DNA of 64,000 bases from an uncultured Candidatus Saccharibacteria bacterium (GTDB lineage Bacteria; Patescibacteriota; WWE3; UBA101185; UBA10185): positions 186,583 through 250,582 of the forward strand of contig CAYLMU010000002.1 of the NCBI GenBank assembly GCA_964385105.1. The letters are read 5' to 3'. The notes below the pieces were generated by a model. That model worked only from the letters and a program-made list of their open reading frames with translations. It was not told where the DNA came from and made no database searches. The position numbers and the translations under genes were made by a program. Position 1 is the first letter of the stretch. Each line of letters starts with the position of its first letter. Positions 1 through 48,835 of the stretch are shown here, piece by piece.

Positions 1-640
1 ATGCTGTTGGAGCTTGTGGAAGCCCTGCCAAAAACGTTGCTTCTCCCATAGATAGTTCATCTACTCTTTTATTAAAGTACTTTTTTGCAGCTGCTTGAAT
101 TCCCCACGCTCTGCCTCCATATGGAATATTATTCATATAGTGTTGCAAAATCTCGTCTTTTGTATATTTTTGTTCAACAATCATTGCAAGTACTATTTCT
201 TTAACTTTTCTGCTGTAGGTTTGCTCAGGGCTAAGCAGTACATTTTTAACTAATTGCATAGTTATAGTAGAACCGCCTTGAGTTTGACCGTCAATTAATG
301 TTTCTTTTGCTGCACGTGCCAAACTTGAAACTCTTATACCATTGTGTTCTCTAAATTTTGCATCTTCAATTGCCAAAGTAGCATTTATTACATAAGGGGG
401 TATATCTTCTAAAGGAACAGGTTCATACCATCTATCTTTTGGAACTTCGTATAGTAAATTGCCGTTTCTGTCATAAATAGTAATTGTTCGGTAAGAGTCA
501 GCAAGAGTTAAATCTGTAAATGCATTAACTGAAGGTAAATTACTAAACCAGGCAGTGAATGCCGATAAAATTATGAGTAATAATACTGAAATTATGGCTT
601 GACTTACTCTTGTATCGTTATGAATTCTGTATATATCCAT
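1..640 (-). CDS. Class A penicillin-binding protein (PBP1), N-terminal transglycosylase (GT51) part; gene continues beyond window start
   Basis: Reverse-strand translation from ATG (complement of cat at 638-640) gives MDIYRIHND...signal/TM anchor...EDAKFREHNGI...GGSTITMQLVKN...RKVKE, the canonical GT51 transglycosylase motifs. There is no stop before position 1. It is absent from the ORF track only because it is open-ended. Confidence 0.7.
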   Translation of the reverse strand, partial: MDIYRIHNDTRVSQAIISVLLLIILSAFTAWFSNLPSVNAFTDLTLADSYRTITIYDRNGNLLYEVPKDRWYEPVPLEDIPPYVINATLAIEDAKFREHNGIRVSSLARAAKETLIDGQTQGGSTITMQLVKNVLLSPEQTYSRKVKEIVLAMIVEQKYTKDEILQHYMNNIPYGGRAWGIQAAAKKYFNKRVDELSMGEATFLAGLPQAPTA

Positions 641-716
641 CTTACGCTTATTATTGTTTATTTGTATGTGAATGAATATAAGAATATGTAAAGCTTTTGT
701 TAGATATATAGGTTAT

Positions 717-1583
717 TTAAAAAGTCCATTGTTCAAGAACCTCAATCATGTCTATACCGTTTTTTGTAAGCGCGTCCTTCCAAACATCGCCACGTTCTTT
801 TAATCTCAACGGTACTGATTTAAGTGTAAAGTTTCTTGGATTAAGGTTATTATCAACTTCATCCCAAGTTATGGGAGTTGAAACTGTTGCAGTTGGAGTC
901 GCATTAAGTGTATAAGGAGCTGTTACAGATCCTCCAAGTACATTGTTTTTAAAATTAATTAAAACCTTTCCGTTATTATCCTCAAATACGTTACTTAACG
1001 TAGTTATACTCGGAATCCGTTTATGAATTTCAATAGAAATTAATTTTGCAAAACTATATGCCTGTTTATATGTATATAGGTTTCCTAAAGGAATGTATAT
1101 GTGTAATTCATCCTCGCTTGATGTTTTGATGCTTGGTTTAACTTCGAGTTTATTTAATAAATCGTTTATTGCAAGAGCTACTGCTATCACCTTTTCAAAA
1201 TTTGTGTTAATGGGTTTAAGCTCAATAACAGCATAATCGGGCCGTTGTGTGTTAGTTAACCGTGAATGCCATGTATGAAATTCAATTGTTGCTTTATTCG
1301 CCAAATAGGTTAGTGTACTTTTGTTTTGACAGATTATGTTAACTGTGTTGAAAAAGTAGTTTGTTACATAATTATAAGTTGTTGCAAATTTGGGTATGGC
1401 TTCAAAGTTTTCTTGAAAAAACCCTTTATTATGTACTCCTTCAGGAAACCTTCGAACCATTAATGGTCTATCGTAAAGATAAGGAAGAAGCACTTTTGAA
1501 ATCTGTTCATAATAATTTAATACATCGTTCTTAGTGTATTGAGGCTCGGGAAAGTATATTTTATCAATATTGGTTAAATACAC
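717..1583 (-). CDS. LigD-type polymerase domain (PolDom, archaeo-eukaryotic primase-polymerase), stand-alone
   Basis: The 288-aa ORF carries the PolDom signature GKVLINFKNNVLGGSVTAPYTLNATPTATVSTPITWDEV (cf. LigD GKVLIDYLQN..TAVAPYS.R....PVSTPL.WDEL), and its N-terminus (YFPE...TKNDVLNYY) matches LigD_Pol. Confidence 0.75.
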   Translation of the reverse strand: MYLTNIDKIYFPEPQYTKNDVLNYYEQISKVLLPYLYDRPLMVRRFPEGVHNKGFFQENFEAIPKFATTYNYVTNYFFNTVNIICQNKSTLTYLANKATIEFHTWHSRLTNTQRPDYAVIELKPINTNFEKVIAVALAINDLLNKLEVKPSIKTSSEDELHIYIPLGNLYTYKQAYSFAKLISIEIHKRIPSITTLSNVFEDNNGKVLINFKNNVLGGSVTAPYTLNATPTATVSTPITWDEVDNNLNPRNFTLKSVPLRLKERGDVWKDALTKNGIDMIEVLEQWTF

Positions 1584-1633
1584 ATTATATTTCTCCTTAT
1601 TATGTAGTATGCGTTTGTAATATAAAATAAGAT

Positions 1634-3013
1634 TTAATTTCTTGTTAGAGGTGAGTAAGAAGATTTTTTTATAATCTTAATGTTTTTTGCGTTTTTTTGA
1701 TTATTTAAATATGCATATATTATTTTATATGTGTCCAAGTCAAAATTATGATCTTTTAACCCCCAGTTTTCAATGGTAAAAGTATCAACTAAGCTATTCT
1801 CTTCATTTGATTCTATAATTTCAATAAAACCTTCAAATGGCCAGTTTTTTACTTTATTGCCTGATAATGCGGTATAAAGCCTAATATTATATTTCAACGG
1901 ATTTTCATTTTTTATACATGCACCGGAACAAATATTCAGTTTGTGCGAAAAACATGATCCCGACGTTTTTTCTAGCCCCAGTAATTTATCACAAAGATTA
2001 TATTCCTTTAAGATTGCCTGAAGAAATTGCTTTGCACTTTTTTTTCCGGTAAATATGCCATATGAATCTTTTATATTTTCGTATGTACATTCGTAACTAT
2101 CGACAATTTTAACCTCTTCATACCCGTCTTCATTTTTTTCTAAATTAAGCAGTACAAGATTGTGGTTTCGACGCAATTTTTTATTATATAAAGGTTGTAA
2201 TTGTTTAATTAATTCGGCTTCTTTAATCAATGCACCAAACTCACCTGCTGTATTAATAATTTCCAATCGATTTATTTGTTGAGCTATTTTTAAATCTTTT
2301 CCGTAAATATGATCGCCTGAAAAATGCGAAAGTACCCTTCTTTTTAAATTTATACTTTTGCCAATGTATATAGGCAAGTTGTTTTGTCCGTAAAATATAT
2401 ATACCCCGGGCGTCTCAGGAAGCTCATCCAGCACACTTTGCGGTATATTCAACGGAACAGAAGGTTTCTGCATATTTGAGTTAATGGCGCTTAGAACTTT
2501 TTCATGTGAAAAGTCTGTTTTTACTCTTTCAAAGAATTCCCAAATTACGGTTGCATCATCTAAAGCTCTGTGCCTATTTTTTACTTGAAAGTTAAACCTA
2601 TCTATAATTGCATCCAGATTGTGTTTTCTAAAGTTGGGAAATAGCTTTCTTGATAATTTTACTGTGCAGATTTGCGTTGCATTAAACTTTACTTCCTGAA
2701 GCCCAAACTCTTTTTTCAAAAATGCATAATCAAAGCGTACATTGTGTGCCACAAAAACACTATCATTTAAAAGTTCAAAAATTTCGTCTTTAAGGTCATA
2801 AAATGTCGGGGCTAATTCAAGCTCTCGTTCATCAATACCTGTAAAATCTAATATTTCTTTAGGAACATGGTCTTGCGGGTTTATGAGTGAATTAAAGACG
2901 TCAGTCACTTTTTCGTTTTCTACTCTTATTATTGCAACTTCAATAATTCTGCTTTTTGAAAGACTTCCCCCGGTAGTTTCGATGTCTACAAAAGATAGTT
3001 TATTTGGCAGCAT
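1634..3013 (-). CDS. DnaQ-like 3'-5' exonuclease fused to a GIY-YIG (Cho/UvrC N-terminal-like) nuclease domain
   Basis: Exo I motif FVDIETTG, Exo II HNVRFDYAFL and Exo III HRALDDA, followed by GIY-YIG (GVYIFYG...IYIGKSINLKRRVLSHF) and a Cys-rich UvrC-like segment. The ORF-track start at 3082 lies inside a terminator hairpin, so the start was moved to the in-frame ATG at 3013 (MLPNKLSFVDIETTG). Confidence 0.7.
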   Translation of the reverse strand: MLPNKLSFVDIETTGGSLSKSRIIEVAIIRVENEKVTDVFNSLINPQDHVPKEILDFTGIDERELELAPTFYDLKDEIFELLNDSVFVAHNVRFDYAFLKKEFGLQEVKFNATQICTVKLSRKLFPNFRKHNLDAIIDRFNFQVKNRHRALDDATVIWEFFERVKTDFSHEKVLSAINSNMQKPSVPLNIPQSVLDELPETPGVYIFYGQNNLPIYIGKSINLKRRVLSHFSGDHIYGKDLKIAQQINRLEIINTAGEFGALIKEAELIKQLQPLYNKKLRRNHNLVLLNLEKNEDGYEEVKIVDSYECTYENIKDSYGIFTGKKSAKQFLQAILKEYNLCDKLLGLEKTSGSCFSHKLNICSGACIKNENPLKYNIRLYTALSGNKVKNWPFEGFIEIIESNEENSLVDTFTIENWGLKDHNFDLDTYKIIYAYLNNQKNAKNIKIIKKSSYSPLTRN

Positions 3014-3052
3014 ATATTTGTGAATCGTAGCAAATCTTCGGGTTTTATTCAA

Positions 3053-3080
3053 CTTTTGAAAAGGGCGGCTTGCGCCGCCC
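3053..3080 (-). terminator. Intrinsic terminator hairpin after the acidic small-protein gene (minus-strand sense: GGGCGGC-GCAA-GCCGCCC then CTTTTC)
   Basis: A perfect 7-bp GC stem (plus strand 3063-3069 gggcggc, 3074-3080 gccgccc) in a ~30% GC genome, followed on the minus strand by a T-run. It sits 9 nt after the stop of the 3089..3292 gene. Confidence 0.6.
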
Positions 3081-3088
3081 ATAATTAC

Positions 3089-3292
3089 CTATTCCCAATC
3101 ATCATCACCGTCTTCATCATCAAAATCAAAATCGTTATCATCGTCTTCATCGCCAACACCTGGTAGACCATTTTCGTCCATATCGTTTGTTTCCATTTCA
3201 CGTTTTTTTCTCTTTTCTTCTTCATCCTCATCTAGCATGTCATCCATATCCATATCTGTTGTCATGTCATCAGTAGTATCAAAGTCTGCCAT
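3089..3292 (-). CDS. Hyper-acidic 67-aa protein (Asp/Glu-rich, C-terminal DFDFDDEDGDDDWE)
   Basis: ORF preceded by a perfect Shine-Dalgarno AAGGAGGTG (complement of 3300-3308) 7 nt upstream of ATG. A candidate TTGATT-N17-TATGCT promoter lies upstream and an intrinsic terminator follows. Composition is about 60% D/E. Confidence 0.65.
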   Translation of the reverse strand: MADFDTTDDMTTDMDMDDMLDEDEEEKRKKREMETNDMDENGLPGVGDEDDDNDFDFDDEDGDDDWE

Positions 3293-3299
3293 GTTAAAT

Positions 3300-3349
3300 C
3301 ACCTCCTTCAATATTACCTAGCATAAGTTGAACTTAATAATAAATCAAT
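3300..3349 (-). promoter_or_regulatory. Shine-Dalgarno (3300-3308) plus candidate sigma70-like promoter (-35 TTGATT at 3344-3349, -10 TATGCT at 3321-3326) for the acidic small-protein gene
   Basis: Read directly from the sequence; spacer is 17 nt. Confidence 0.45.
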
Positions 3350-3387
3350 ACATTTACAATGTATAAATTACTTTATAAAATTAAACT

Positions 3388-4098
3388 ATGCAAACAACTA
3401 ATTTAAAAAAATTTATACTTCCTGTTTTGGTAGTTTTATTCTTCACATTATTTTACTTAGCTGTAGGAAGAAAGTCTTATATAACAGTAACGGGTACATA
3501 TAGCTCACAAGAATCAAATCAACAGGCATCTTTTGGTGCCTATTTAGAATCTAAAAACGCCGATAAACAGGTAGCGGTTGATAATCTTAGTGAACGAACA
3601 GAAGCTGTAATGACTGCATTGCGTGATTTTGGAATTCCACAAGGTGATTTAATGACAACAACTGTAAATGTATATCAGGAGCAATTATATAATCCTGACA
3701 CAAGTAGATCAGATTTAGGTGATTGGATTGCTTCAACCAACATCGAGGTAAAATTAGCTGAAGGTGACAGAGCTCAAGAATTAATCAGTTTATTAACTTC
3801 ACTTGATATAAATAACTACTATGGACCCAACTATACATACAGTAATGAAAATGTGGATCAAAGTGCCCTTTTAACCGGAGCTTATGAGAATGCAGTTGAA
3901 AAAGCACAGTCTATGGCACAACTAAGAGGTATGAGACTGGGTAGAATGGTAAGCTTTGTAGAAGGTTACTCACCCGACAGCCCTATAATTTACGGCAGAA
4001 TGGATGGTCTTGGTGGTGGCGGCGGAGTACCCGTTGAACCGGGAACATCAGAGATCTCAAAAACTGTCACCGTTACATTTGAATTGAGTAAATTTTAA
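3388..4098 (+). CDS. SIMPL-domain (DUF541/BP26-like) secreted protein
   Basis: N-terminal signal/TM, length ~236 aa, and a C-terminal pattern (AVEKAQSMAQLRGMRLGRMVSFVEG) typical of SIMPL proteins. Confidence 0.55.
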   Translation: MQTTNLKKFILPVLVVLFFTLFYLAVGRKSYITVTGTYSSQESNQQASFGAYLESKNADKQVAVDNLSERTEAVMTALRDFGIPQGDLMTTTVNVYQEQLYNPDTSRSDLGDWIASTNIEVKLAEGDRAQELISLLTSLDINNYYGPNYTYSNENVDQSALLTGAYENAVEKAQSMAQLRGMRLGRMVSFVEGYSPDSPIIYGRMDGLGGGGGVPVEPGTSEISKTVTVTFELSKF

Positions 4099-4870: not shown

Positions 4871-6643
4871 ATGTCAGAATATAAAATTGATGTACAGCAA
4901 AATAAAAGTAGTCTTGAAAGACTTATTTTTGAGGTTTCAAACTTAAGTAACCCAACAAACAATGAGCTATACAAGCTTTTCAAGAAAAATACTAGCAGTG
5001 ATGGCGATATGTTTTCAAAAAGTGATGTTATTATTGCCTACCGTAAGTTAAAAAGAAAAAAGCTATTTGAATTAACCGGCGACAAAGAAAAAAACTTTTA
5101 TAAAAACATTAAAATGAAGAAAATTCGTACTATGTCGGGGGTTACTCCTGTTACCGTTCTCACAAAGCCTTTTCCTTGCCCGGGCAAATGTATATTCTGC
5201 CCAAATGATGTAAGAATGCCAAAAAGTTACCTTTCTGATGAGCCCGGGGCGCAACGGGCTGAATCAAACAAATTTGACCCATATTTGCAAACGTTTAACA
5301 GGCTTGTTGCTTTTAGAAACACAGGCCACCCAACAGATAAAGTTGAGTTGTTAATTTTAGGAGGAACTTGGTCGTCGTATCCTGAAAGTTATCAAATTTG
5401 GTTTGTTAAACGTTGCTTTGATGCGATGCATGATTTTAGCCAGTCTGATACATCCGAAATGCTAGACCCAAAAACTGTAGAATACCCTTTTGAAGAAAAC
5501 AAGCTTTCAGAAATAAACGGTGAAAATATGCAATTGACTTACAATCAGGTAATTGCAAAAGCAACATTACAATTAAGAAAAAATCATGAAGAGTCGGCAA
5601 CATGGGAAGAACTATTTAAGGTTCACAAACAAAATGAAACCTCACCAACACGATGCGTGGGCTTGGTTATAGAAACAAGACCTGATGAAATTAATGAAAA
5701 AGAAGTTATTAGAATAAGAAAACTTGGAGCCACAAAAGTGCAAATAGGAATCCAAAGTTTAAACGATAAGGTTTTAAGCTTAAACAAACGCGGTCATGAC
5801 GTTAATCAAACAAAGCGAGCAATGTATTTATTGCGGTGTGCTGGTTTTAAAATTTTGGCTCATTGGATGCCCAATCTATACGGCTCAACTCCTGAAAATG
5901 ACATTAAAGACTTTAAAAAGCTTTTTTCAGATATTGCAATTAGACCTGATGAATTAAAAATTTATCCATGTTCATTAGTTAAAAGTGCTGAATTAATGAG
6001 ATATTATAATGATGGTTTATGGCAGCCGTACACAGAAGAGGAGCTATTACACGTGGCCGTAAACATTATGCCCGAAACACCCAGATATTGCAGACTTACC
6101 CGTGTAATAAGAGATATTCCGTCAATCGATATAGTTACCGGAAACAAAAAAACCAATTTTAGACAAATTGCCGAACAGGAAATAGCAAAAAAAGACAAAA
6201 AATTAAAAGACATTCGTTCAAGAGAAATAAAAACAAAAACCGCAGAAATTGAACAACTAGAACTAAAAATAACAAAATACAAAACAGCGGGAAGTGAAGA
6301 GTATTTTATAGAGTACATAACAAAAAATGACTTAATTGCTGGTTTCTTGAGATTATCAATTCCAAATACAGATGGTTTAAAAGCACAATTTATGCCTGAA
6401 CTTGAAGATATGCCAATAATTAGAGAAATTCATGTTTACGGGCAAAGTGTTGAAATTGGAAAAAACGATTCTTTAAATGTTCAGCATAAGGGATTAGGTA
6501 AAAATCTCATAAATGAAGCCAAAAAAATAAGTAAGCAGATGGGTTATTCTAAAATTGCAGTAATTTCATCAGTTGGAACGCGTGAATATTACAAAAAAAG
6601 TGGGTTTACGATGAAAGGTCTTTATCAGGTTTCAAATCTTTGA
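4871..6643 (+). CDS. elp3: Elp3-family radical SAM / GNAT acetyltransferase (tRNA wobble-uridine modifying enzyme homolog)
   Basis: Radical SAM CxxxCxxC (CPGKCIFCP) with the Elp3-specific flank GVTPVTVLTKPFPCPG and the YLSDEPGAQRAE motif. A C-terminal GNAT region (HVYGQSVEIG...HKGLGKNLI) is present; 590 aa. Confidence 0.8.
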   Translation: MSEYKIDVQQNKSSLERLIFEVSNLSNPTNNELYKLFKKNTSSDGDMFSKSDVIIAYRKLKRKKLFELTGDKEKNFYKNIKMKKIRTMSGVTPVTVLTKPFPCPGKCIFCPNDVRMPKSYLSDEPGAQRAESNKFDPYLQTFNRLVAFRNTGHPTDKVELLILGGTWSSYPESYQIWFVKRCFDAMHDFSQSDTSEMLDPKTVEYPFEENKLSEINGENMQLTYNQVIAKATLQLRKNHEESATWEELFKVHKQNETSPTRCVGLVIETRPDEINEKEVIRIRKLGATKVQIGIQSLNDKVLSLNKRGHDVNQTKRAMYLLRCAGFKILAHWMPNLYGSTPENDIKDFKKLFSDIAIRPDELKIYPCSLVKSAELMRYYNDGLWQPYTEEELLHVAVNIMPETPRYCRLTRVIRDIPSIDIVTGNKKTNFRQIAEQEIAKKDKKLKDIRSREIKTKTAEIEQLELKITKYKTAGSEEYFIEYITKNDLIAGFLRLSIPNTDGLKAQFMPELEDMPIIREIHVYGQSVEIGKNDSLNVQHKGLGKNLINEAKKISKQMGYSKIAVISSVGTREYYKKSGFTMKGLYQVSNL

Positions 6644-10969: not shown

Positions 10970-12350
10970 TTAGTATACGTTAATTGTTACCGGATCTACC
11001 ATTCCCATTGTACAGCTTAATTTGTAAGTACCTTTTTTTTCCGGTGTGAATTTAATAACATTCATACCCTGTTCTAAATAAATTACATTAGGATACAAAC
11101 CATGCACATAAGCAGCTTGGGCACATCCGTATACCCCATGGTTATAAAATTCCCATACAACAGGAACACCTGCTTTTAAATTGATTTCTTTTGGATAGTA
11201 ATCAAATTTTGATGCTTCCATTTGAATATATTGTATTTCTTCCGATTCATCTTTTTTATTAGATAAAAAGCTTTTTTCGAATTTTTCACTATTAGGTTTT
11301 AGAATGTCATTTAAACTTGTAACTCCCAGAACATTTAATTGGGAATTTAAAGTATATAAAGCAAAAAATACTACAAGCAACCCGGCAAAGTAATTAAATT
11401 TAGTAGAAAATTTGGGATTTGAGTGAAGTTTTATACTAGTAAAGCTAATAATTGCTAAAATTGGCAATGTACCAAGCGCAAAAAATAATAGCATTAGCGC
11501 ACTATTTATAAAGTTTCCTGTAACAAGAGCAGTTGATTGTGCAATAAGAGTAAATCCGCACGGTACAAAAAAAGTTAAAACGCCGGCTGCAAAAGGCATG
11601 TACTTTCCTGAAAAGTTGTTTGTATTTGAGATGTTTTTTGTGAATTTTTTGGGTAATTTTAATTGAAATTGATTTAAAAATTTTACACCAAGCATTTGAA
11701 ATCCAAGTAATAGCATTATTAATGAGACTACAAGAGTGACCGTTGCAGTAGTACCAATTGAAATCTGCAAAGCACCACCAATCAAGCCTAATAAACCTCC
11801 TAAAACAGCAAATGAGACTAAACGACCGACATTAAAAAGTATAAAAGGTGTGTATTTATTGTCAGCTTTATAAGAATCATTCCATTGTTTTGATAATGAA
11901 AGCAATATACCTCCAACAAGTGCCGCACAACTTGAAAGCCCTGCCACAAGCCCAAACATGAAAAATACAGGTAGCGAAGAGGTATTTGTTATAGAAAAGC
12001 TCATTAATACAGGTGATTTTTCGATGTAAGAAAACAAAGTTACAAAAACTAAAACTATTAAAATAATTTTAACAAAATCACCTCTACTTACAGTTGTGTT
12101 TTTTGGTGCTTCTGTTGAAAATGTATATCCAAGTTCTTTGAATTTAGAATTTAACTCGTTTATATGTGGCAAGTGCTTTTTACTTTTTGCAACCACAGTC
12201 ACGCAATTATTTTTTAATGAAGCAGTTACCTTTTCTATGCCATTTAGTTCTGAAATTTCAGTTTCAATAATTGTTTCGCAGGATGCACAGTGCATTCCAT
12301 TTATAAAGTAAGTTTTTTTTGATTTATTAGCATTAGTTTGTTTATTCATG
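10970..12350 (-). CDS. HMA-domain membrane protein (N-terminal GMHCASC metal-binding domain, multi-TM DsbD_2/CcdA-like region with Cys in TM helices, C-terminal beta-rich Cys/Met domain)
   Basis: MxCxxC motif INGMHCASCE; about 6 TM helices with SSCAAL and VPCGF; C-terminus has GCAQAAY and SCTMGM. The ORF-track start (TTG at 12361) overlaps the csoR -35 box, so the ATG at 12350 was used. Confidence 0.55.
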
Positions 12351-12354
12351 AGTG

Positions 12355-12383
12355 TTGACAATACCCATACGGGGTATTAGTAT
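12355..12383 (+). promoter_or_regulatory. csoR-copA promoter with embedded CsoR operator (TTGACA -35; operator ATACCCATACGGGGTAT at 12361-12377; -10 TAGTAT)
   Basis: Perfect -35 TTGACA and a GC-rich pseudo-palindrome ATACCC-N5-GGGTAT between -35 and -10. It closely matches the B. subtilis copZA CsoR operator (TACCCTACGGGGGTA). The csoR ATG lies ~7 nt after the -10. Confidence 0.65.
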
Positions 12384-12389
12384 ATTGTA

Positions 12390-12668
12390 ATGCAAGAAAA
12401 AAATAAAAACAAGAGCAAAAATTCGGTGAATCACCGCTTAAAAATTATTTCAGGGCAAATAAACGGGCTTGCAAAAATGATAGAAGAAGACAAGTATTGT
12501 GTCGATATAATTACTCAATCAACTGCCATACAAAGAGCCTTGCAACAATTAGATAAAATAATTCTAGAAGAACACATTAACCATTGTGTTGTAGACCAGA
12601 TGCAAACAGGAGAATCAGATAAAGCTGTAGAAGAACTCGTAAAAATTTTTAGTATTTCAAGAAAATAA
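12390..12668 (+). CDS. csoR: CsoR-family copper-sensing transcriptional repressor
   Basis: 92 aa, DUF156 layout with Cys (YCVDI) and His/Cys (HINHCV) ligand positions; directly upstream of copA with its stop/start fused (12668). Confidence 0.8.
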
Positions 12669-14872
12669 TGAAAAAAACCACATTTCATGTTACAGGTATG
12701 CATTGTGCGAGTTGTGCAGTGCTTGTTAGTAAAAATCTCAAAAAGTTGAGTGCTGTAAAATCCGCACATGTAAACTATGCCAACGAACAAGCTGTTGTTG
12801 AACATAGTGAATCTTTATTACAAAGTGATTTACTGCTAGCCGTGCAAAATGCCGGTTATAAAGCTGTATTTTTGGACGCCAATGCAGAAGCAAAAATAGA
12901 ATCACAAAAAAAAGATGATTTAAAACAAATGAAGATAAAGTTTTTAATTAGTGCAGTTTTTACCGTTTTGCTAATAATTGGGGCAATGGCTCCTTTTGCA
13001 CCTGCTGTTTTAAAAAATCCTATTGTTATGTGGTTACTAGCTACTCCGGTTCAATTTTGGATAGGAGCCCAATACTATAAAAGTGCATTTTCTGCTCTTA
13101 GAAACAAAACAGCTAATATGGATTCTTTAATAGCTTTAGGAACATCGGTTGCATACTTTTATTCGGTTTTTGTGATTTTATTTAGTGATTTATTGATGAG
13201 TTTGGGAATTGACTCACATGTTTATTTTGAAACTTCGGCTACAATAATAACTTTAATTTTGCTAGGAAAATTGTTAGAAGCACGTGCTAAGGGTCAAACG
13301 TCACAAGCTATAAAAAAGCTATTAAATTTACAAGCAAAAACAGCACGCGTTGAAAGAAATGGACAAGAACTAGAAATACCGCTTGAAGATGTAATGCTAA
13401 ACGATGTACTAATTGTAAAATCCGGTGAGAAGATTCCGGTTGATGGGGTTGTAATTAGTGGAAGCTCTTCAGTTGATGAAAGTATGGTTACCGGTGAAAG
13501 TATGCCTGTTAAAAAACAAAATGGAGATGAAGTAATTGGCGCAACAATAAATACATCCGGTTACCTGAAAATAAAAGCCACAAAAATCGGAAACGAAACA
13601 ATGTTGGCTCAAATAATAGAAATGGTAAAAGATGCTCAGGGTTCAAGTGCTCCTATACAAAAGCTTGTTGATAAAATATCAGGTGTATTTGTTCCGGCTG
13701 TGATTGTTTTGAGCATAATAACCTTTTTGATATGGTTTGCATTTGGCCCTCAACCTTCGTTTGTTTTTGGTCTGGTTAACTTAATTGCGGTACTTATTAT
13801 AGCTTGTCCTTGTGCATTAGGTTTAGCTACACCAACTTCAATTATGGTGGGCACAGGTAAAGGTGCGCAATACGGAATTTTGGTGAAAAATGCAGAAAGC
13901 CTGGAAATTGCAAACAAAGTTGATTACGTCGTTTTTGACAAGACTGGAACTCTAACCAATGGTCAACCTAATGTAACCGAACTTATTTTGGAGGAAAGCT
14001 TGTACCCATATATATTTTCTGTTGAAAAACAGTCTCATCACCCTTTAGCCGCTGCTGTTGTGGAACATTTGCAAAAGTTTCATGTAAGCGAACTAAATGT
14101 TAACGAATTTACAGACCACTCAGGTTTAGGAGTAAGCGGCATTGTTAATGGTGAAGTGGTTTTAATAGGCACACAAAAGCTACTTGAACAATTTAATGTT
14201 ACTTTAAAACAAGATATTGTACTTCAGGCAGAAAAATTAAAATCACAAGCAAAAACAGTTTCATATATTGCAATAAATCATGAACATGTGGGATTGCTTG
14301 GAATTTCAGATACTATAAAAGAAGGTTCGAAAGAAGTTATTTCTGATTTGGTTAATATGGGCATAACTCCGGTAATGCTGACAGGAGATAATGAGGCAAC
14401 TGCAAAGTCTATTGCCCATGAATTAGGAATATCACATGTTATAGCAGAAGTACTGCCCGGGGATAAAGCAGCTAAAATAAAAGAATTGCAAAAACATGCA
14501 AGTGATAAAAAGATTGTTGCAATGGTTGGAGATGGAATAAACGATGCACCTGCACTTGCTACTGCTGATATTGGCATTGCAATGGGAAGCGGAACTGACG
14601 TGGCTATTGAATCTGCCGGAATAACACTTTTACGAGGAGACATTACATTAGTTACAAAATCGCTAAAGCTTTCAAAAGCAACTATGAGAAACATTAAACA
14701 AAATTTAAGCTGGGCATTTGGATACAATATTATACTTATTCCTGTTGCTATGGGCATGCTCTACCCCTTTACAGGATTATTGTTGAATCCAATGCTTGCA
14801 AGCGCGGCAATGGCATTTTCAAGCGTTTCGGTTGTGGCCAATGCTCTACGACTAAGAAGTATAAAGTTGTAA
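12668..14872 (+). CDS. copA: Copper-translocating P1B-type ATPase
   Basis: N-terminal HMA GMHCASC, TM6 CPC ([11 protein letters not shown]), DKTGTLT phosphorylation site, GDGINDAP hinge, and TGES in the actuator domain. Confidence 0.9.
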
Positions 14873-18207: not shown

Positions 18208-18708
18208 TTACTCAACAATAAGTGTGCCTACCATACCCATTTCTCTGTGATTTCCAACGCTGCAGTAAAACTCATAAGTTCCGGCTTTGTCGGCAACAAA
18301 TTCTATTTCATCCGTTTCACCTGCATTGATTATTTCGGTTCTGGCGTTAAATTCATCAACAACCCAGTCATGCACACCATTGGCATTACTCAAAACAATT
18401 CTTACAGTATCTCCTTCATTTACTCTTATTTCATTTGGCGTGTAGCTAAAAGTAGTAGATTCAACTTCAAAAGTTTTAACTTCACTCACTGCTTCTGTTT
18501 CATCTTCATTTTCTGTGGTGGTTTCCGCAGGTACATCTACTACAACCTCATTAACCGCTTCTGTGGCTGTTCCTTGAACACTTTCGTTCTCACCATTTAG
18601 TGAAGTTAAAAAGTAAATTGCACCTACAATTAAAATAAGTACTATACTTCCTATAAGAAGTAATTTTTTGCTTGGGGCGGGTTGTGTGGAGGTTTCATTA
18701 TTATCCAT
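18208..18708 (-). CDS. Membrane-anchored cupredoxin (type-1 blue copper protein, plastocyanin/amicyanin-like)
   Basis: N-terminal TM anchor; C-terminal beta-sandwich with ligand pattern His (GVHDW)...YCSVGNHREMGM (Cys-x4-His-x3-Met). Confidence 0.65.
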   Translation of the reverse strand: MDNNETSTQPAPSKKLLLIGSIVLILIVGAIYFLTSLNGENESVQGTATEAVNEVVVDVPAETTTENEDETEAVSEVKTFEVESTTFSYTPNEIRVNEGDTVRIVLSNANGVHDWVVDEFNARTEIINAGETDEIEFVADKAGTYEFYCSVGNHREMGMVGTLIVE

Positions 18709-31568: not shown

Positions 31569-31961
31569 TTAAAGCTTATAATCTGTATATTGTCTTGGTA
31601 ATGGGGATTTATCTTTTGGATTACCATTATAATTAATAAAAATCTCCTCATCCTGCTTTATGTCTTTTATAGCAACAAAGTTCATTAGCATGTTCTTAAA
31701 GTCTTTTATAAATCTGGCATTGGGTTCATATGAGTGGTTTATTAAAATGCTATATCCTACAACAAAACATTCATATTTATCGTTCCATTCAAAGTTATAC
31801 CATCCTAATGTGGTGTCTTCTACCAGTGAAACCTGTCTTTTAGGTATTAAGATTATTGGTGCTGCTTCTATAATTTCACCCTCTTTAATGGGTTTTTCAG
31901 CTAATAAACATCTGATTCCGTTTAATGTGGGAGATTTGCCGACTTTAAATTTAAATTGCAT
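31569..31961 (-). CDS. SET-domain protein (putative protein-lysine methyltransferase)
   Basis: SET core motifs INHSYEPNA (cf. NHSCxPN) and EEIFINY (cf. EELtfdY), with the N-terminal GxG-like region; 130 aa. Confidence 0.6.
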   Translation of the reverse strand: MQFKFKVGKSPTLNGIRCLLAEKPIKEGEIIEAAPIILIPKRQVSLVEDTTLGWYNFEWNDKYECFVVGYSILINHSYEPNARFIKDFKNMLMNFVAIKDIKQDEEIFINYNGNPKDKSPLPRQYTDYKL

Positions 31962-48172: not shown

Positions 48173-48835
48173 TTGTATATGAGCCATTTTAACGAAATAG
48201 ACTTTGGAATTCCTTTGTCTGATGAAAGTCAAAACACAAATAGTGAGGTTACTGACGCTATAGTAAGCTTACAATCAGAAGGATTTACTATAAGCCCAAT
48301 AATTCAAGAACAGTTTGAGGACGGAGACTTATCAAAGGCATTGGGAGAAAAGTTTTCTTCAACTGAAATAAGAGAGTTTATAAAAAACAGTAGTCTTTTT
48401 TTAGATTTTAGAGCATCAGAAAAAGCATTGATTATGCTTGGAGATAACGTAACAATCCCCGAATCAATTGGTGCAAATGGAACTATTAGAAGAAGCGAAA
48501 CAGGGCAACGTGTATTAATAAGCGTTTTAGAAAGTGAAGGTATTGATCCATCTAAGGTTTTGATGTTTCGTGTGACTCAACCTAGTGAGTTACCAAAACC
48601 TGAATACTATTGGACATCTGCGTACTTTGAAGCAGTCAATGGCTTAAACGAAGAAATAGATCCGTAAATTAGATCACAGTCTGTTATTTTGGTTAGTACA
48701 ATTAAAGAAATAAATACAAATGAGGGGCTGATTGTAGATATAAATGATGATAACCAATTACCTGTACGACAAATAGGATTGGCGCCCTTTGATCAATCTC
48801 GATGTTTAGCTATTATAACAAGAGAAGTTTTATAG
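48173..48835 (+). pseudogene. Paralog copy 1 of a 214-aa unknown protein; in-frame TAA at 48665-48667 where copy 2 has GAA
   Basis: Aligns along its length with 52263..52907. The ORF ends ...EEIDP at TAA, but the same frame continues IRSQSVILVSTIKEI...RQIGLAPFDQSRCLAIITREVL, homologous to the copy 2 C-terminus. Confidence 0.5.

Follow-up and report, generated by a model that had tools for sequence, protein, structure and literature searches.

LigD-type polymerase domains (PolDoms) of non-homologous end joining (NHEJ) occur as free-standing proteins of about 300 aa in split operons of Patescibacteria, in which Ku, phosphoesterase (PE), ligase (Lig) and polymerase (Pol) are separate genes (loci L092-L100), and in Methanocella paludicola, whose stand-alone NHEJ polymerase is represented by 5DMU. 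Mycobacterial Prim-PolC of the LigC complex (5OP0/6SA0) is likewise a stand-alone PolDom with a conserved pocket, and it acts outside NHEJ on 5'-phosphorylated gaps (base-excision-repair gap filling); it has been reported that PolDoms bind short 5'-phosphorylated gaps and fill them during excision repair (PMC5663958, PMC7442782). Meanwhile, a mycobacterial fusion of DnaQ with UvrC/Cho (Rv2191) has already been described as a nucleotide-excision-repair-type enzyme (PMC1564403). A model has been proposed for it, and is so far a proposal only, in which GIY-YIG makes a UvrAB-dependent 3' incision, the exonuclease then degrades the damaged strand 3'-5' from there past the lesion, and a 3'-OH is left for repair synthesis (PMC1564403; PMC11348249). 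The present analysis concerns a locus in which a gene of each kind stands side by side, namely a PolDom gene and a DnaQ-Cho fusion gene in a stretch of 64,000 nucleotides (the window) from an uncultured Candidatus Saccharibacteria bacterium (contig CAYLMU010000002.1, positions 186,583 to 250,582).

A sequence-only reading of the window had noted a free PolDom co-directional with an exonuclease/Cho fusion and 50 nt from it. Both genes were confirmed on the minus strand at the coordinates listed in Table 1, with matches to PF21686, RNase_T, GIY-YIG and Cho. The new element is the PolDom, which is a selected, catalytically degenerate orphan of a known family, found in one lineage represented by two genomes. 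Compared with the split Ku-PE-Lig-Pol operons, to whose PolDoms it is homologous at 36-41% identity, it has no Ku, PE or ligase beside it, has lost the catalytic triad and the residues that bind nucleoside triphosphate, and has DnaQ-Cho and penicillin-binding protein (PBP) genes as neighbours. Prim-PolC is an active polymerase (D140, D142, D231) encoded beside LigC, whereas E, K and N occupy these positions in the window protein, which has no adjacent ligase. The reading favoured here, which could as easily hold as fail, is that an orphaned and catalytically degenerate PolDom has been retained as a binder of 5'-phosphates or gaps, possibly assisting the co-directional nuclease.

The PolDom matches PF21686 (LigD_Prim-Pol; AEP superfamily) over the whole profile (1-254/254, E 4.9e-62), and an exhaustive phmmer search returned 8735 homologues at E<=1e-3. 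Its AlphaFold2 model is a confident one (pLDDT 94.5, pTM 0.92), with Foldseek TM scores of 0.86-0.92 to 5dmu, 6sa0, 2r9l, 2fao and 2iru and of 0.90-0.92 for 5dmu, 6sa0 and 2fao; as far as this prediction goes, the three-dimensional fold is kept. The score is 0.90 to the Methanocella enzyme and 0.92 to Prim-PolC, and it is about 0.80-0.81 when normalised to Prim-PolC, which is longer (about 330-350 residues vs 288). The 5'-phosphate-binding pocket is retained as well. Its residues N5, K8, Y10, K18, R45 and P47 align to N20, K23, Y25, K35, R63 and P65 of Prim-PolC (PMC7442782), and the pocket was also aligned to N13, K16 and K26 of the Mycobacterium tuberculosis (Mtb) PolDom (PMC8656161).

The metal ligands D140, D142 and D231 of Prim-PolC correspond to E121, K123 and N210 in the window PolDom (PMC7442782); the Mtb equivalents are D137, D139 and D227 (D227: PMC8656161). 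The alignments to solved PolDoms, to 17 relatives and to 163 relatives are concordant. Every solved structure, like 156 of 164 relatives, has the catalytic triad D-D-D; it is E-K-N in the window and E-I-D in a related genome, hereafter the sister. A set of 51 positions is at least 90% conserved across 36 other PolDoms; the window protein keeps 37 of them, including K8, K18, R45 and P47 of the pocket, and differs at 14, including the three catalytic Asp, both motif II Gly, Q213N, R203N and R227N. The template-stacking FFQ motif, the structural prolines and the aromatics are kept. It can be seen from these residues that the window PolDom is very unlikely to polymerise. The sequence-only reading had cast it as the primase-polymerase of an end-processing module, a role that does not agree with an active site in which D-x-D has become E-L-K, the motif III Asp has become Asn, and the motif II Gly, Q213 and R227 have been lost.

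Several other PolDoms also have non-canonical triads: P0155 has DNN, P0191 EED, P0241 NND, P0268 EHD, P0274 NTD and P0169 DDV, and an ATP-ligase domain is still attached to P0155, P0191 and P0169. No nuclease fusion was found among the relatives without the D-D-D triad, all of which are ligase-fused or stand-alone. Degenerate PolDoms may be a recurrent and unremarked phenomenon (8 of 164 sampled). A literature search of a limited collection found no PolDom pseudoenzyme and no link of LigD or PolDom to GIY-YIG or DnaQ.

The same gene order, DnaQ-Cho > PolDom > PBP > ... > RuvCAB, is present in the sister genome (L002), where the PolDom (P0002) is 59% and the DnaQ-Cho protein (P0016) 66% identical to those of the window. 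Seven of the 14 changes at conserved positions are common to the two PolDoms, and seven more are present in the window. Position 123 is K in the window and I in the sister, position 227 is N vs L, and in motif III the sister still has the Asp. The shared changes indicate that catalysis would have been lost before the two genomes split, and that sites 123 and 227 have drifted since. Between window and sister, synonymous sites are saturated (synonymous difference, pS, 0.88) for every gene, which makes dN/dS unusable, so that only the non-synonymous difference (pN) was compared across genes. The PolDom has a pN of 0.275, compared with 0.25 for RuvA, 0.27 for SIMPL and 0.32 for a methyltransferase. 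In addition, its open reading frame (ORF) is intact in both genomes at 59% identity and in DNA of 32% GC, and the chance of a random 288-codon frame staying open is about 1e-10, as estimated from base composition. Since pN is like that of housekeeping genes and an unselected frame of this length would not stay open in such DNA, the PolDom is under purifying selection, probably for something other than nucleotidyl transfer.

The ancestry of the PolDom can be traced through its relatives. In the exhaustive phmmer search, the closest were mostly LigDs of 600-900 aa with a C-terminal PolDom; the best, P0136 (44% identical), is a Lig-Pol LigD, P0003 (39%) is a Saccharimonadales LigD, and an ORF 16 nt ahead of that of P0004 (37%) encodes an ATP-ligase of its own. 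Stand-alone PolDoms are common in Patescibacteria, for instance in Doudnabacteria and Yanofskybacteria. Split NHEJ loci were looked up for L092, L094, L095, L097, L100 and the locus of P0285, and in all six the PolDom gene closes a series in which PE (LigD_N) and Lig are genes of their own. Ku was called in five of the six; in L092/L093, PE-Lig-Pol is present and Ku was not called within the flank. In L100, Ku and PE are separated by two genes on the opposite strand. In L094, an 88-aa stand-alone GIY-YIG gene (5709-5975) lies between ligase and PolDom, a second and different juxtaposition of GIY-YIG and PolDom. The operon-type PolDoms of Patescibacteria are about 70% identical to one another. 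In a neighbour-joining (NJ) tree, the window PolDom is 0.57-0.60 from the nearest LigDs, a long branch, vs 0.34 for the PolDom of locus L032. The window PolDom is best seen as a descendant of ligase-linked PolDoms that was first parted from the other NHEJ genes and later lost its catalytic function, and it is proposed that the separation took place before the window genome and the sister diverged.

Two further observations concern PolDoms elsewhere. At L005 9273-10001, a PolDom (P0005) 36% identical to that of the window is preceded by a 242-aa ORF, the stop of which overlaps the PolDom start; this ORF has no Pfam match and may be a candidate partner. The L005 genome is apparently not from Patescibacteria, because it encodes a sigma-54 activator. 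A PolDom scan of a genome-contig collection gave an unrelated Burkholderiales LigD as its only match.

NHEJ partners were searched for in the surrounding DNA. No Pfam match to Ku (PF02735), PE (PF13298) or ATP-ligase (PF01068, PF04679) was present in about 56 window ORFs, and tblastn with Bacillus Ku and five LigD queries was negative for Ku and LigD across the window. Hidden Markov model (HMM) profiles of Ku, PE and Lig, built from the Patescibacteria operons and run with hmmsearch on the six-frame translation, gave a best window match of E>1, while the positive control L094 gave E<1e-117; for Ku, the best window value was E 3.1 vs 8e-148 for the control. The 10 kb past the window edge (L001) and 21 kb of contig from the sister (L002) likewise gave no Ku, PE or ligase. 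The locus is therefore not classical NHEJ, locally, just as the sequence-only reading had suggested on noting no Ku or ATP-dependent ligase in the 64 kb. In part, the observations that this reading had named as counting against it were made: the closest kin of the window PolDom are canonical PolDoms, embedded in LigD or linked to a ligase, and the Ku-PE-Lig-Pol synteny of other Patescibacteria is of the standard type, though split.

The partner gene encodes a nuclease with the same order of parts as Rv2191-type fusions, that is, an epsilon-like DEDDh exonuclease, a GIY-YIG domain and a Cys-rich/Cho C-terminal region. The DEDDh residues D33, E35, D118, H171 and D176 (numbering of the 482-aa ORF) are intact and invariant in an alignment of 22 sequences, as are Y228, Y239, R249, E288 and N300 of the GIY-YIG domain and the cysteines C364, C377, C385 and C389 of the C-terminal region. 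Because all these residues are invariant, the enzyme looks active. PF27096 and PF27115 are found on most DnaQ-Cho homologues, the sister protein P0016 included. The NCBIfam models for 'DEDD exonuclease' (PRK07883, E 5e-66) and 'excinuclease Cho' (PRK10545, E 1e-56 over residues 215-441) both match, with scores below the equivalog cut-offs (223 bits vs 495 and 192 bits vs 367, respectively). E. coli excinuclease Cho (YdjQ), whose GIY-YIG catalytic residues are conserved in the window enzyme, has no exonuclease domain, unlike the latter. The Rv2191-type fusions are about 560-640 aa long vs about 460 aa in the window, and no PolDom pairing is known among them.

A total of 4454 DnaQ-Cho homologues were found at E<=1e-20; the closest are about 50% identical, and those that are named belong to Woesebacteria, Roizmanbacteria and the 'Patescibacteria group', which assigns the window to a bacterium of the Patescibacteria (CPR). 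Judged by its sequence, the window enzyme has the architecture of PRK07883/Rv2191-like proteins and belongs to a separate Patescibacteria clade. The fusion is thus a widespread Patescibacteria gene of an already described type. When the neighbours at 80 metagenome loci were clustered, no neighbour of DnaQ-Cho proved conserved; the commonest neighbour family occurred in 7 of the 80 loci, and there were no repair genes among the families. The view of the fusion as a special partner of the PolDom is not supported, as the gene is abundant, its neighbours are unconserved, and the type is known from mycobacteria (PMC1564403).

As regards the linkage of the two genes, they are co-directional, and the 50-nt gap between them contains a ribosome-binding site and no hairpin or terminator-like structure. 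An adjacent PolDom was found at one of the 80 other DnaQ-Cho loci (L032), where it occupies 56-966 and lies 94 nt upstream of DnaQ-Cho (1060-2478), in the order opposite to that of the window. The L032 PolDom has canonical motifs and one frameshift near nt 480-490, and the contig ends 55 nt before its start; being about 70% identical to operon-type PolDoms, it is probably the end of an NHEJ operon. Monophyly of the DnaQ-Cho-linked PolDoms was not recovered, as the L032 protein groups in the NJ tree with canonical Patescibacteria/Bacteroidota-like PolDoms and not with the window pair. On this tree, in which the window protein sits on a long branch, the two PolDom/DnaQ-Cho juxtapositions look, tentatively, independent. 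A functional coupling of PolDom and DnaQ-Cho is plausible and unproven.

The features of the locus are collected in Table 1. Position 3013 is the likely true start of DnaQ-Cho (candidate start Met: MLPNKLSFVDIETTG), because homologues begin at this Met and the hairpin upstream falls inside the first 23 codons of the longer ORF. The hairpin marks, as a putative terminator of the acidic ORF, the 5' limit of the DnaQ-Cho transcription unit; a terminator scan of 1-3600 overlooked it because its U-run has only four U. A sigma-70 promoter scan of the same region gave no more promoter-like matches than expected from shuffles. The acidic 67-aa ORF has a strong ribosome-binding site (GAAGGAGGTG) and no match in Pfam or, by tblastn, in any fetched locus, the sister L002 included; it could be a DNA-mimic or SSB-tail-like small protein. 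The gap between PolDom and PBP is 76 nt and hairpin-free when folded, and the PBP is the next gene on the same strand, as had been read from the sequence. Beyond window position 1, ruvC-ruvA-ruvB lie downstream of the PBP (L001 4358-6429), and a RecD-like helicase (AAA_30/UvrD_C_2) is found at L001 8909-10081. With ruvCAB and this helicase at most 10 kb downstream of the PolDom, the stretch is rich in DNA-repair genes. The GC content of the window is 0.27-0.37.

Table 1. Features of the PolDom/DnaQ-Cho locus, in order of transcription (window coordinates)
Feature	Position	Strand	Remarks
67-aa acidic ORF	3089-3292	-	Upstream-most of a four-element series; D/E-rich, C-terminal DDDWE
Terminator-like hairpin	3059-3080	-	GGGCGGC-GCAA-GCCGCCC + UUUU; 3' of the acidic ORF; fold of 3040-3095(-): dG -18.1, z -2.56
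DnaQ(DEDDh)-Cho fusion gene	1634-3013	-	459 aa from likely true start; mechanical ORF 1634-3082, 482 aa
DnaQ/RNase_T 3'-5' exonuclease domain	2537-2992	-	PF00929, residues 31-182, E 6e-33
GIY-YIG nuclease domain	2183-2407	-	PF01541, residues 226-300
UvrC_M/Cho_C region	1673-2065	-	PF27096, precomputed for identical protein P0015
Intergenic spacer	1584-1633	-	50 nt; fold no better than shuffles; no terminator-like site
Ribosome-binding site AAGGAG	1593-1598	-	9 nt ahead of PolDom GTG start
Stand-alone LigD-type PolDom gene	717-1583	-	288 aa; degenerate active site
5'-phosphate-binding pocket	1530-1571 (N5, K8, Y10, K18); 1443-1451 (R45, P47)	-	Retained; alignment to Prim-PolC
Motif I, degenerate	1215-1223	-	E121-L-K123 for D-x-D
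Motif II	1101-1127	-	KTSSEDELH; both SGxxGxH glycines replaced (G156S, G159E); K153, T154, S155, H161 kept
Motif III, degenerate	903-962	-	LINFKNN (D210N, Q213N) + APYTLN (R227N)
Class-A PBP gene, 5' part	2-640	-	Truncated at window edge; transglycosylase E 5e-56

Elsewhere in the window, a bacterial Elp3 homologue with radical SAM, Radical_SAM_C and GNAT domains is encoded at 4871-6643 (+) and is 69% identical in the sister. A copper-handling cluster (10970-14872 and 18208-18708) consists of a membrane protein of HMA-DsbD-cupredoxin make-up, a small CsoR-type-like ORF and a CopA-like P-type ATPase, these last two judged from translation only, and, set apart, a plastocyanin-like cupredoxin. 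A 130-aa SET-domain protein (PF00856, E 1.6e-14) is encoded at 31569-31961 (-), in a bacterial genome. A 300-nt direct repeat of 86% identity (48215-48514 and 52290-52589, 4075 nt apart) duplicates the N-terminal part of a Pfam-unmatched protein (ORFs 48173-48667 and 52263-52907), and between its copies lie genes for an APH-type kinase, a PRTase-CE-like product and a protein of 374 aa without assignment.

If the retained PolDom assists the nuclease, the two could work together as follows. By analogy with the published mycobacterial model, the GIY-YIG/Cho part would nick 3' of the lesion, which would give rise to a 3'-OH and a 5'-phosphate, and the DEDDh exonuclease would widen the nick in the 3'->5' direction through the damaged strand into a gap, which would be of the 5'-phosphorylated kind that PolDoms bind. 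The PolDom, possibly co-transcribed with DnaQ-Cho, may then dock at the 5'-phosphate that borders the nick or gap, and once docked it may position, limit or hand off resection, or flag the gap to the housekeeping polymerase and ligase. It is the adjacency of the two genes that suggests these docking and coupling steps. A more specific proposal, that a catalytically dead PolDom was exapted in a Patescibacteria lineage as an accessory subunit that senses 5'-phosphates or gaps for a Cho-exonuclease excision nuclease, is unlikely as a whole. Several points weigh against a partnership of this kind. Its coupling comes from adjacency in one lineage, that of the window and its sister (two genomes with long stretches of common gene order in any case), and from L032, where the PolDom is canonical, frameshifted and probably the end of an NHEJ operon. 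The other 79 of the 80 DnaQ-Cho loci have no PolDom, the fusion has no conserved neighbours, and DnaQ-Cho is present at none of the six canonical Patescibacteria PolDom loci. The negative results for Ku and ligase cover the 64 kb plus about 10 kb of a 319-kb contig, and 21 kb of the sister. The inactivity of the PolDom is itself deduced from sequence, and some metal binding by E121 together with the acidic SSEDE loop is still conceivable.

In an alternative explanation, the adjacency is accidental and the PolDom is a remnant of a broken Ku-PE-Lig-Pol operon, kept for an unrelated or weak reason or decaying slowly. The high variability of DnaQ-Cho neighbourhoods and the rarity of PolDoms in them agree with this, as do the separation of the two genes at the six canonical loci, the long branch of the window PolDom, and an active site that has degenerated progressively, with seven changes shared with the sister and seven more in the window. 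A decaying gene would hardly be expected, however, to remain open in two genomes in AT-rich DNA with saturated synonymous sites, to have a pN like that of its housekeeping neighbours, to keep selectively its 5'-phosphate pocket and structural core, or to have a good ribosome-binding site 50 nt behind the nuclease gene, and the relic explanation is considered somewhat unlikely. The opposite possibility is that the polymerase is active, and that primase-polymerase, 3'-5' exonuclease and GIY-YIG endonuclease form a minimal module for incision, resection and refilling or for end processing, similar to the gap filling of Prim-PolC. The known filling of short 5'-phosphorylated gaps by PolDoms (PMC5663958, PMC7442782), the 3'-OH primer that the Cho-exonuclease model would leave for repair synthesis (PMC1564403), the tight spacing of the co-directional genes and the pairing of a canonical-motif PolDom with DnaQ-Cho in L032 would all suit such a module. 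It is nevertheless highly improbable in view of the active sites: the window has none of the three metal-ligand Asp and carries K at the second position of motif I, the sister has only the motif III Asp and carries I at that second position, and G156, G159, Q213 and R227 are lost. Window and sister differ in the residues that have come in, so that there is no sign of a conserved site that would compensate.

It is also conceivable that the organism carries out classical NHEJ from dispersed genes, with Ku, PE and ligase encoded elsewhere and the PolDom playing a non-catalytic part in 5'-phosphate-dependent end synapsis or partner recruitment. Split NHEJ sets do exist in Patescibacteria, and PolDom-mediated synapsis depends on the phosphate pocket, which the window PolDom retains (PMC8656161). 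Against this, PE, Lig and Pol are contiguous in every canonical Patescibacteria example, with Ku alongside in five of six, and none of Ku, PE and Lig was found in the 64 kb and the adjoining 10 kb, nor in 21 kb of the sister; moreover, canonical PolDoms are about 70% identical mutually and only about 40% identical to that of the window. Dispersed NHEJ is accordingly given little weight. What the data show are the identities of the domains, an intact set of nuclease residues, degenerate polymerase residues, a retained pocket, a confidently predicted fold, purifying selection and the local lack of Ku, PE and Lig; the loss of activity, the partnership with the nuclease and the DNA-binding role, most likely a non-catalytic one at 5'-phosphorylated nicks, gaps or ends, are inferred.

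PolDoms have structural roles beyond catalysis, namely 5'-phosphate-dependent gap binding and end synapsis, and Prim-PolC has moved from end joining to excision repair. A PolDom without its catalytic carboxylates and yet under purifying selection would, if the reading is true, be a natural separation-of-function allele for these non-catalytic activities. If the exaptation took place, the window protein would be a natural PolDom pseudoenzyme working through DNA binding alone, and the non-catalytic functions of NHEJ polymerases would be selectable on their own and recruitable into excision repair. If the PolDom partners DnaQ-Cho, it would give a first handle on the targeting of a common, uncharacterised fusion nuclease of Patescibacteria and actinobacteria. 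If the adjacency is accidental, the finding would serve as a caveat for annotation, as 'LigD/NHEJ ligase' labels, and the NHEJ or polymerase capacity deduced from them, would be wrong for such orphan genes.

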